From NCBI GenBank assembly GCA_017626355.1, contig JAGAIY010000012.1, forward strand, positions 1,876 to 65,875: a DNA stretch of 64,000 bases, given 5' to 3'. The notes under the pieces were generated by a model that saw only the letters and a list, made by a program, of their open reading frames with translations, ran no database searches and was not told the DNA's origin. Within the stretch, counting starts at the first letter, position 1; every line of letters begins with the position of its first letter. The position numbers and the translations under genes were made by a program. This stretch comes from Bacteroidales bacterium (GTDB taxonomy: Bacteria > Bacteroidota > Bacteroidia > Bacteroidales > UBA932). Of this stretch, positions 58,226-60,332 are shown piece after piece.

Positions 58226-58306
58226 AACTTAAACCGCATTTATATGAAAGTGATATTCAAGATAGACACCATTAAAATCGGTCTGGAGATGCAGAAATAA
58301 AATTTG

Positions 58307-58337
58307 TTTGCTGAACAGCTGAAAATATCTATCTTTG
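58307..58337 (+). promoter_or_regulatory. Promoter of the ORF6N array
   Basis: TTTG (58307-58310), 19 bp spacer, TATCTTTG (58330-58337). Confidence 0.7.
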
Positions 58338-58376
58338 CTTACAAGTCTGAACACCGTGGTTCGGTTAGAGTTCCAC

Positions 58377-58420
58377 AACGCGATATGGGTATAGTCGTAT
58401 AAGCCCGTATTGCGTTTTTT
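58377..58420 (+). terminator. Terminator-like hairpin in the 5' leader of the ORF6N array
   Basis: AACGCGATATGGG / CCCGTATTGCGTT 13-bp stem (2 G-U pairs) running into a T tract. Confidence 0.6.
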
Positions 58421-58450
58421 TGTTTTTATACGGCACTGAAACATTGAATT

Positions 58451-59044
58451 ATGGAAAATGAAAGAGCATTGAATCCGACGGCAATCGAGTCGTTGATTTA
58501 TGAGATCAGAGGGCAGAAGGTGATGCTGGACAGGGATCTGGCAAAGATGTATGGGGTTGAAACGAAGGTTCTGAATCAGGCTGTCAAAAGAAACATGAAG
58601 AGATTCCCGGAGGATTTCATGTTTCAATTGACTCCGGAGGAATACGATATCTTGAAGTCACAATTTGTGACATCAAGTTGGGGTGGAACCAGAAAACTGC
58701 CATATGTATTCACAGAACAAGGACTGGCAATGTTGTCCGGTCTATTGAATAGTGATGTAGCTATAAAAGTGAATATTGCCATAATGCGGACATTTGTAAC
58801 CATCCGCAATCATCTTTACACTACCCAAAGATTCACAGCAGAGCTGGAAGCGATAAAGGCGAAGCTGGAGCTGCTGGAGAGGAATGACGAGGACAATCTT
58901 GAGGCTATAAATGACCTTTCGGAAGACATGAGACACGAAATTGACACTATCTATCAGGCGATTGCAGCATTGTCGGTCAAAGAATCTCCGCAAAAGGAAC
59001 CGCAGAGGCAGAAAATTGGATTCAAGACACAAAACAGCAAGTAA
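58451..59044 (+). CDS. ORF6N (KilA-N-like) DNA-binding protein, copy 1
   Basis: IYEIRGQKVMLDRDLA, AVKRN..RFP.DFMFQL, PYVFTEQG.AMLS; coiled-coil C-terminus. Confidence 0.9.
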   Translation: MENERALNPTAIESLIYEIRGQKVMLDRDLAKMYGVETKVLNQAVKRNMKRFPEDFMFQLTPEEYDILKSQFVTSSWGGTRKLPYVFTEQGLAMLSGLLNSDVAIKVNIAIMRTFVTIRNHLYTTQRFTAELEAIKAKLELLERNDEDNLEAINDLSEDMRHEIDTIYQAIAALSVKESPQKEPQRQKIGFKTQNSK

Positions 59045-59048
59045 CATT

Positions 59049-59633
59049 ATGGAAAACAGCACATTAAAACAGACGACAATCGAGTCGTTGATCTATGAGA
59101 TCAGAGGGCAGAAGATTATGTTGGACAGAGATCTGGCAAGTCTTTATGGGGTAAGCACTGGTAATCTGAACAAGGCAGTAAAAAGAAATATTGAGAGGTT
59201 TCCTGAAAGGTATATGTTTCAATTGACTTCAGATGAAAACTTGAAATTCCAAAATGGAATATCAAGTTGGGGTGGATCCCGTTCCTTGCCATATGCTTTT
59301 ACAGAGCAAGGTGTTGCCATGCTTTCTTCTGTATTGCATAGCCCGGCTGCCATTCAGATAAGTATCAGAATTATAGATGCTTTCGTGGCAATGAGAAACT
59401 ACATAATGTCAACGAAGACGATATCCGATGAACTGGAAGCGATAAAGGCAAAGCTGGAGCTACTGGAGAGGAATGACGAGGACAATCTTGAGGCTATAAA
59501 TGACCTTTCGGAAGATATGAGACGCGAAATTGATACCATCTATCAGGCGATTGCAGCATTGTCGGTCAAGGAACCGATGCAGAAGGAACCGCAGAGACAG
59601 AAGATCGGATTCAAGACACAAAACAGCAAGTAA
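59049..59633 (+). CDS. ORF6N DNA-binding protein, copy 2
   Basis: Same motifs; ATG 59049 is 4 nt after the copy 1 stop. Confidence 0.9.
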   Translation: MENSTLKQTTIESLIYEIRGQKIMLDRDLASLYGVSTGNLNKAVKRNIERFPERYMFQLTSDENLKFQNGISSWGGSRSLPYAFTEQGVAMLSSVLHSPAAIQISIRIIDAFVAMRNYIMSTKTISDELEAIKAKLELLERNDEDNLEAINDLSEDMRREIDTIYQAIAALSVKEPMQKEPQRQKIGFKTQNSK

Positions 59634-59637
59634 CATT

Positions 59638-60246
59638 ATGGAAAACAGCATATTAAAACAGACGACAATCGAGTCATTGATCTATGAGGTTAGAGGGCAG
59701 AAGGTGATGCTGGATTTTGATCTGGCTGAATTGTATCAGGTAGAAACGAAGAGACTGAAAGAATCTGTCCGAAGAAATATCGAGCGTTTTGAAGGGGATG
59801 ATTTCATGTTTGAATTGACTTCTAAAGAGTATAACTCTTTGATAATCAGTTTGAGGTCGCAAATTGCGACCTCAAACGAGAGAGGTGGACGCAGACATAT
59901 GCCCTTCGCTTTTACAGAGCAGGGAGTAGCCATGTTATCCAGTGTCCTTAAAAGCGAAAGAGCAATTCAAGTCAACAGATCTATTATCAGAGCTTTCGTG
60001 GCAATGAGAAATTACATAATGTCAACAAAGACGATATCCGCTGAGCTGGAAGCGATAAAGGCAAAGCTGGAGCTTCTGGAGAGGAACGATGAGGACAATC
60101 TCGAGGCAATAAATGATCTGTCAGAGGATATGAGACGCGAGATAGACACAATATATCAGGCGATTGCGGCATTGTCCGTCAAAGAACCGACGCAGAATGA
60201 GCCACAGAGGCAGAAGATAGGGTTCAAGACGAATAATAGCAAATAA
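59638..60246 (+). CDS. ORF6N DNA-binding protein, copy 3
   Basis: Same motifs; ATG 59638 is 4 nt after the copy 2 stop. Confidence 0.9.
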   Translation: MENSILKQTTIESLIYEVRGQKVMLDFDLAELYQVETKRLKESVRRNIERFEGDDFMFELTSKEYNSLIISLRSQIATSNERGGRRHMPFAFTEQGVAMLSSVLKSERAIQVNRSIIRAFVAMRNYIMSTKTISAELEAIKAKLELLERNDEDNLEAINDLSEDMRREIDTIYQAIAALSVKEPTQNEPQRQKIGFKTNNSK

Positions 60247-60320
60247 AAACACCGCTGCCACGACTCGAGAAGCAGAAAAAAAGAAAAATGCTTCTCTCGT
60301 CCGTGGCAACGGTGTTTTTA
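60244..60320. terminator. Long imperfect inverted repeat between convergent ORF6N-3 and glyS (bidirectional terminator)
   Basis: TAAAAACACCG.TGCCACG..GAGAAGCA / TGCTTCTC..CGTGGCA.CGGTGTTTTTA. Confidence 0.7.
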
Positions 60321-60332
60321 TATAGAAAGCTC

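Follow-up and report, generated by a model that had tools for sequence, protein, structure and literature searches.

Three tandem ORF6N genes of a Bacteroidales bacterium each pair a predicted DNA-reading helix with a palindrome in their own coding sequence

Introduction

Why would a bacterial chromosome hold three copies of one DNA-binding gene in a row, nearly identical at their ends and divergent in the middle? We address this question for a head-to-tail array of three ORF6N genes between thiL and glyS in a 64,000-nucleotide stretch of a Bacteroidales genome (GenBank assembly GCA_017626355.1, contig JAGAIY010000012.1, positions 1,876 to 65,875), referred to as the window, whose numbering is used throughout. 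The ORF6N domain was reportedly first described by Iyer et al. in 2002. A preliminary description, made from the window's letters, had suggested that the constant ends of these genes let their variable heads be exchanged, and that the shared tail could allow hetero-oligomers with combinatorial specificity. As far as sequence comparison can tell, the variable middle comprises discrete classes rather than free variation, and in each class a helix residue is matched to an intragenic palindrome. We tentatively regard the array as a cassette of three reader-plus-site genes whose products likely bind their own genes and likely act in defence against phages or other mobile DNA, held in check by the self-site; we favour this composite reading while thinking it marginally more apt to fail in some part than to hold throughout. 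The changes of gene number and order at this slot, the identity of heads across species and the leader are new here, and our search of full-text literature, with most subscription journals outside its coverage, returned no description of an intragenic palindrome, a residue code or tandem arrays for ORF6N genes.

Results

A palindrome occupies a fixed codon position

The strongest palindrome of each array gene, 27–31 bp long, sits at one fixed codon position (Table 1), and the three differ from each other through paired changes in both arms. Relatives were gathered from congeners, metagenomes, GTDB genomes and viral contigs, giving 200 distinct genes that span the domain and 134 non-redundant genes at <90% identity. 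At least 10 of 13 pairs were present in 130 of the 134, with the same centre codon in 124. The mean number of pairs was 11.6, compared with 5.5 after synonymous recoding of the same peptides, and of 240 trials with codon-shuffled genes 16 reached 10 pairs and none exceeded it; such an excess over recoded and shuffled genes indicates that the palindrome is kept at the nucleotide level. Because its centre is a single base and mismatches at positions −13 to −1 show no excess of the G-U type (25 G-T type versus 38 A-C type), it appears to act as double-stranded DNA and not as an RNA hairpin.

When the assembly, which is 74% complete, was scanned with a half-site matrix in which half-sites could combine freely, all sites fell within the genome's five ORF6N genes. 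Other loci yielded 25 more site copies outside the matched ORF6N stretches, most of them at most about 150 bp from a gene end and many without a long open reading frame (ORF) over them; some equal the gene's own site and some do not. Several extra copies, some of other classes, lie next to a solitary ORF6N gene, either to one side of it or to both (L186:2850-3958, L187:2899-2955, L210:2866 and 3543). Behind the same leader as the array's, RhuM-family genes (L070:259-1128, L313:535-1452, L320:1709-2728) carry a related coding-sequence palindrome with 10–11 of 11 pairs. RhuM, to which the one experimentally tested PDC-S05 member discussed below belongs, may therefore have self-sites as well.

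Helix residues 43 and 40 covary with the palindrome

For covariation we used 128 of the 134 genes, six having been dropped for weak or off-site best matches, and for class assignment the 115 with a symmetric dinucleotide at −5/−4, leaving aside the 13 asymmetric ones. Residue 43 matched this dinucleotide one-to-one in 115 of 115 symmetric sites: CA-Q 65, CG-E 31, TC-K 12, GC-R 6 and AC-R 1. The array genes belong to classes Q, K and E, the three commonest. On a tree built from 80 columns, excluding helix, site and wing, residue 43, the dinucleotide and their joint state each required 35 changes, and among 57 disjoint nearest-neighbour pairs 24 differed in both and 33 in neither. The association was strongest for residue 43 (Fisher P = 1 × 10−16), followed by residue 40 (P = 2 × 10−7), with every other column at 1 × 10−3 or weaker. 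Mutual information was highest between residues 43, 40 and 39 and palindrome positions −4, −5 and −7; residue 39 tracks −7, and wing residues 81–82 track −10 and −8.

In the structural model, residues 38–47 form the second helix of a helix-turn-helix, with a wing after it. The pairings of Gln with A, Arg with G, Asn with A and Lys with G agree with textbook base contacts. The code fitted 23 of 23 symmetric calls at loci collected later (five being this genome's own genes, with one further site asymmetric and two uncalled) and 22 of 22 in a further set, many of the later genes being close kin of the first set. Each protein in all likelihood binds its own palindrome as a dimer, with residues 43 and 40 reading −5/−4. 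Among longer ORF6N proteins, L010 and L011 have their palindrome in another frame (centre phase 1), over a different peptide, and residue 43 fits there as well.

Heads and flanks have separate histories

Across ten arrays, trees of the tail and of the 5′ flank group genes largely by array, and the head tree groups them by class; silent divergence within arrays spans 0.03–0.59 in tails and 0.38–0.83 in heads. In the window, genes 2 and 3 have a linker in common and genes 1 and 2 a tail, with significant breakpoints, and a mosaic test gave P < 0.001 for two of the three gene pairings. These results bear out the suggestion that constant flanks allow head exchange. The tails of this array differ by 0–0.01 at replacement sites versus 0.23–0.59 at silent sites, a gap which argues that all three proteins are under purifying selection.

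The preliminary description had proposed that copy number and head alleles of the interval be compared among relatives. Both vary: the slot, which lies at the glyS end, holds 0, 1, 2 or 3 genes of changing type and order. Types A, L and M all belong to class Q and differ in outer arms and wings. The window reads A-K-E, congener G323 L-A-E (E cut short) and G177 E-M-L; L066 has A-K and L065 L-A; L stands alone in G124 and G399, and K in L064; M comes first in L073, and A lies at a contig end in G288. G075, G082, G066, G107 and G065 have no ORF6N gene there. The relative order of L and E is reversed between G323 (L first) and G177 (E first), so deletion alone cannot derive all these orders from one linear ancestor. 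Nowhere across species did we find the same three genes fixed with uniform divergence along their length, the pattern named beforehand as speaking against exchange. A single cyclic order of heads fits every slot array, but trivially so with few three-gene arrays, and we do not claim it. Lineage-specific insertion of the array was suggested by ORF6N genes in 0 of 29 congeners within 1.5 kb downstream of thiL (four had <200 bp), and was rejected once longer stretches placed the slot on the glyS side of the interval, with >3 kb between it and thiL in most relatives.

For heads A and E, identity to their G323 counterparts is 94–100%, compared with 85–91% for the tails, 79% for thiL and 82–96% for glyS; heads so much more alike than thiL point to exchange between species. 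A close homologue (E ≤ 1 × 10−45) occurs in 49 of 401 congeneric genomes, in about six of these as adjacent tandem genes. In none of 27 neighbour pairs across 18 arrays do both genes have a common site, unlike the outcome of fresh duplication. Homologous recombination within the conserved 5′ flank and tail is, on these comparisons, very probably what adds, drops and swaps heads, with no dedicated recombinase; reader and site, about 90 bp apart inside the head, would thus travel together.

Expansion or contraction within the species, which the preliminary description had envisaged, did not appear: runs from three other studies (X5, X10 and X12) contain pieces of all three units, and no reliable case of unit loss was found in them. 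Run X1, which matches without differences and may belong to the source study, was not counted as independent. Read-table joints that skip units had short sides, lay at palindromes and likely came from other organisms, so they were left unused. The same applies, as evidence of expression, to metatranscriptome contigs of run X16, which at low depth span some of the leader and of genes 1 and 2 but miss most of gene 3, DNA carry-over being possible.

Elsewhere, an Omnitrophota record (L202:2979-5229) holds a four-gene ORF6N array with a different common tail, so that head/tail arrays arise outside Bacteroidota too. ORF6N genes in L362 (G010:C19) and L359 (G347:C105) have a common tail repeat at about 3-kb spacing, a larger unit than the window's.

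Anatomy and setting of the array

The gross anatomy given in the preliminary description was reproduced throughout. Three genes lie head to tail, each with an ATG start, with start-to-start distances of 598 and 589 bp and 4 nt between neighbours, and score 130.5, 115.3 and 119.5 bits (genes 1–3) against the Pfam ORF6N model (PF10543; cut-off 27.8). The identical junction quoted earlier lies within a 44-nt run common to both joints (Table 1). Residues 131–197 are invariant at 62 of 67 alignment columns, compared with 41 of 100 for the middle (residues 31–130), which has three indels. At 42.6% GC the array is AT-rich relative to thiL (51.2%), glyS (50.5%) and the genome (49.2%), falling at about the 5.5th percentile of genome windows of equal size. 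The tail had also been called a coiled coil; the heptad pattern is visible and the AlphaFold2 model of gene 1 (pLDDT 88.5) has long helices at 102–154 and 158–177, although a coiled coil as such did not emerge. The tail alone matched no PHROG family and no Pfam family above cut-off, and in the ESM atlas searches with the tail returned unnamed clusters, whose matches have no common Pfam family. A basic-I/V-G-F/Y motif closes 106 of 133 ORF6N proteins, even those with unrelated tails (window 59009-59029 and its equivalents in the other two genes), and we take it to resemble the IGF loop by which ClpX docks on ClpP.

Table 1 Positions of the array, its sites and its leader within the window
Feature	Position	Strand	Description
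Bacteroidetes-type promoter-like motif	58307..58337	+	TTTG, 19 nt, TATCTTTG
Structured leader	58343..58450	+	hairpin P1 58356-58376; terminator-like hairpin 58378-58415; T run to 58427
ORF6N gene 1	58451..59044	+	197 aa; class Q (V40, Q43; type A); ATG start; Pfam PF10543
Predicted recognition helix, gene 1	58562..58591	+	residues 38-47; Q43 codon 58577-58579; from AlphaFold2 and mutual information
Palindrome, gene 1	58651..58677		core TCACAA-T-TTGTGA; 12/13 pairs
Conserved helical tail, gene 1	58841..59041	+	residues 131-197; ends in K-I-G-F motif; from alignment and model
Junction 1	59018..59061	+	44 nt, same letters as junction 2
ORF6N gene 2	59049..59633	+	194 aa; class K (equivalents of residues 40 and 43: N and K)
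Palindrome, gene 2	59238..59268		core TTCCAA-A-ATGGAA; 11/13 pairs
Junction 2	59607..59650	+	44 nt, same letters as junction 1
ORF6N gene 3	59638..60246	+	202 aa; class E (equivalents of residues 40 and 43: R and E)
Palindrome, gene 3	59849..59877		core TCGCAA-A-TTGCGA; perfect 14-bp arms
Inverted repeat between array and convergent glyS	60243..60321		arms 95% complementary; likely common terminator

The setting between thiL and glyS also stands. The 3′ neighbour glyS is convergent and scores above its NCBIfam cut-off, and the best match of the upstream neighbour is thiL (E = 2 × 10−36), below the equivalog cut-off. A Pfam scan of 37 window ORFs, with short ORFs elsewhere outside it, found no integrase or transposase family; the genome's three matches to the tyrosine recombinase family PF00589 are on other contigs (C2, C6 and C18). 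Neither the array nor the adjacent genes contain methylase or restriction families, and among the window ORFs scanned there are no phage genes, the array being surrounded by housekeeping and glycan-use genes. The latter include a mannan-type polysaccharide utilisation locus at 7925-34785 with SusC/SusD, two GH26 genes, GH5, GH130, GH94, an epimerase, a major facilitator superfamily transporter and an AraC regulator; SusC/SusD genes point to a gut-dwelling member of the Bacteroidales.

A short ORF at 58244-58300 starts like the DUF4923 gene that comes after thiL in relatives, and this strain seems to have lost DUF4923 together with the subsequent membrane, flotillin and helix-turn-helix genes. 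One contig of run X16 has 575 additional letters between 58261 and 58270. The inverted-repeat element 3′ of the array recurs 3′ of the array in congener G323. A long, GC-rich inverted repeat occurs 3′ of some arrays and upstream of the C24 ORF6N gene (L061:855-940, L335:6200-6325), and is possibly akin to repetitive extragenic palindromes or miniature inverted-repeat transposable elements. The genome's two other ORF6N genes (G000:C14:30595-31082 and G000:C24:20766-21203; L338 and L339), of classes E and R, are solitary, lie between unrelated genes and have in common about 170 bp of upstream sequence unlike the array's.

A structured leader precedes the array

Between gene 1 and a promoter-like motif of the Bacteroidetes type lies a leader with a terminator-like hairpin (Table 1) and a fold z-score of −2.96. 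Promoter-like motifs similar to the window's come before most homologous leaders. In 34 homologous leaders, 8 of 20 pairs change on both sides, a number reached in 0 of 500 shuffles, and 93% of cells are paired; because the window's copy served as the template for the structure, the comparison with slid controls is tilted in its favour. A terminator-bearing leader suggests that the array is likely held at low expression by attenuation. Rfam has no family for leader or array. A scan for sigma-70 promoters and terminators did not rise above shuffles and missed the leader hairpin, and its sigma-70 model excludes the Bacteroidetes-type motif.

The core pattern of the leader occurs in 23 of 301 congeneric genomes, with up to five copies in one of them (G075). 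It most often precedes ORF6N genes, and also precedes RhuM, RhuM-Fic, HigB-like, toxin-antitoxin-like and nuclease/phosphatase genes. Many leaders have a terminator loop and a 5′ end that are both complementary to the stretch just before the start codon; a C4/CI-like antisense role was considered on this basis and set aside, the complementarity being visible in many leaders but uncounted.

Discussion

We propose that each dimer would bind the palindrome within its own gene and that recombination in the conserved flanks would add, drop or swap heads, reader and site together. By analogy, the proteins may act against phages or other elements, with the leader terminator and own-gene binding keeping their level low, a step we hold about as loosely as the whole and consider a little more prone to prove wrong than right. 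An invader with one site class would then soak up only the matching protein, and a single-class decoy would hit one protein, so that stacking Q, K and E would leave two active. The three proteins match three PADLOC models of PDC-S05 with E-values from about 1 × 10−60 to 1 × 10−33 (gene 1, 9 × 10−60; PADLOC rule thresholds unapplied), a likeness that probably supports a defence role. The occurrence of the leader before RhuM, RhuM-Fic and HigB-like genes and the self-silencing of BstA, discussed below, are further points in its favour. According to excerpts of the sources, PDC-S05 is abundant in rumen genomes, with 3275 annotations (PMC13356809), and one member, with a RhuM domain, restricted T7 and T5 about 1000-fold (bioRxiv 2024.09.26.614923). 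The PDC classes were predicted by embedding in defence loci, PDC-S05 being unnamed in the excerpted main text (bioRxiv 2024.01.29.577857).

Several observations weigh against parts of this proposal. For defence, the tested PDC-S05 member carried RhuM and not ORF6N, the PDC labels are guilt-by-embedding predictions, and there are no defence genes beside the array. Exact copies of the three sites occur at 3, 6 and 0 loci in 2.9 million viral contigs, a rarity that gives no sign, in these contigs, of invaders with matching sites being common; the leader pattern matched no viral contig. For the code, linkage of helix and site means that co-inheritance adds to the covariation, the site caller settled on a weak or incorrect site in a few cases, and fold matches are weak: Foldseek returned no match at E ≤ 0.001 (best E 0.03), a PDB sequence search gave nothing below E 0.16, and the head's VIA matches were Dachshund (Z 6.0), pSK1 Par (4.8), Mbp1 (4.4) and RacA (3.8). 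All sequence sets were collected with window-derived queries and therefore lean towards the window's relatives. For recombination, the 0 of 27 neighbour pairs with a common site is no different from random pairing (1.9% expected) in arrays that are non-independent, and at another locus, where L074 and L141 have one and two genes between flanks 98–99% identical, the copy difference could be assembly collapse.

The main rival holds that the genes are self-limiting passengers, remnants of regulators from phages or conjugative elements, in arrays that lengthen and shorten through unequal crossing-over, whose proteins only repress their own transcription through a roadblock in the gene and defend nothing. 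We consider it somewhat unlikely. It agrees with the confinement of this genome's sites to ORF6N genes, with the anti-repressor label of the PHROG matches, with the patchy distribution (49 of 401 congeneric genomes) and with the frequency of frameshifted or truncated ORF6N copies; yet mere passengers sit poorly with purifying selection on the tails (replacement divergence 0–0.01 versus silent 0.23–0.59), with the movement of heads between species and with neighbours that never have a common site despite freshly homogenised tails. Self-binding is also reinterpreted if the site is a target and the host keeps the proteins as a library of repressors that silence ORF6N and related genes of incoming elements. 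The presence of the three commonest classes (65, 31 and 12 of 115), the occurrence of ORF6N genes of classes Q, K and E in viral contigs and the gene 3 site, which differs at only 2 of 18 scored core positions from that of another ORF6N gene in the same genome, would suit such a library, but exact sites are rare in the 2.9 million viral contigs, and a host with the target in its own gene would titrate away its own protein. This leaves the library improbable in our estimation.

The combinatorial specificity put forward in the preliminary description would have shared tails join different heads into hetero-oligomers that read hybrid half-sites and regulate host or element genes. Near-identical tails with a heptad pattern and long predicted helices, together with two-fold symmetric sites, make mixing plausible, and a few sites with hybrid cores lie near genes elsewhere (L186, L235). 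Against it, the scan with any half-site pair found no hybrid or other site outside the ORF6N genes of the 74% complete assembly, and asymmetry at −5/−4 is limited to 13 of the 128 intragenic sites, so we give this idea little credence. A complex prediction for the products of genes 1 and 3 pointed neither way, with a best score of 0.30 versus a mark of 0.32. Least credible of all is that the palindrome is a structural or mutational feature, a hairpin or a product of template switching, matched to the helix through linkage alone. Template switching can perfect palindromes, and helix and site, about 90 bp apart, are co-inherited; but residues 43 and 40 stand apart from all other columns in the strength of their signal, which holds over 35 inferred changes, and site copies outside genes, a one-base loop and the lack of G-U bias also speak against this reading.

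Returning to self-binding proteins with a defensive role, a broader claim would be that Bacteroidales keep recombinase-free defence arrays in which swappable heads encode reader and operator in the same codons under a two-residue code (40 and 43), are traded between species and are stacked so as to block a single decoy; we regard this extension as rather doubtful at present. Genes of the ORF6N/PDC-S05 kind are widespread; should the code prove right, each family member's target could be read off its own gene. At this locus a single backbone comes in three natural variants, for each of which a 27-bp site is predicted. If the role in defence is borne out too, the self-immunity principle of BstA and its aba element would extend to a large chromosomal family, with specificities diversified and stacked by homologous recombination alone.

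By the features compared, the locus is not BstA, a prophage antirepressor, an integron or a restriction system. The N-terminal domain of its proteins is related to antirepressor families (phrog_4792, E = 4 × 10−35, and other PHROG matches labelled anti-repressor), and, in the excerpted account, the immI locus of phage P1 (C4 antisense RNA, icd and ant; PMC8201110) likewise has a structured leader upstream of antirepressor-type genes; the array differs in lacking a prophage and a KilA-C/ANT-type tail, and its leader in lacking an Rfam family. Unlike an integron, it has no linked tyrosine integrase and no inverted repeat (attC) at its 4-nt junctions. The winged-helix, coiled-coil proteins pSK1 Par, RacA, Mbp1/APSES and Dachshund/Ski match the head weakly, with scores within the range of a common arrangement.

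BstA, according to excerpts of PMC8585504, is switched off by a DNA element that belongs to its own locus, and variant proteins have cognate elements; the array genes likewise contain cognate-looking elements, of another architecture, which may suppress their proteins. The N-terminal domain of BstA is described there as KilA-N-like, and the array's is modelled as a helix-turn-helix with a wing and a weak Mbp1 match (Z 4.4). Pfam and PADLOC scans of the array proteins did not return the BstA family. In the same excerpts, BstA is about 307 aa, prophage-borne and single, compared with tandem proteins of 194–202 aa between housekeeping genes, and aba is a 63-bp stretch over the gene start with terminal direct repeats, compared with a palindrome within the domain's codons. 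In the domain movement (DoMo) of type I restriction specificity genes, as excerpted from PMC3077401, variable recognition domains lie between repeats (x-domain-y), and flank recombination swaps them and changes their number from 1 to 3. The array likewise has conserved repeats on either side of variable recognition segments that recombination exchanges, but its units are whole genes without a linked methylase or nuclease, and its target site lies inside the swapped segment. In how it recombines, then, the locus is comparable to DoMo, and its self-site is perhaps comparable to BstA/aba.

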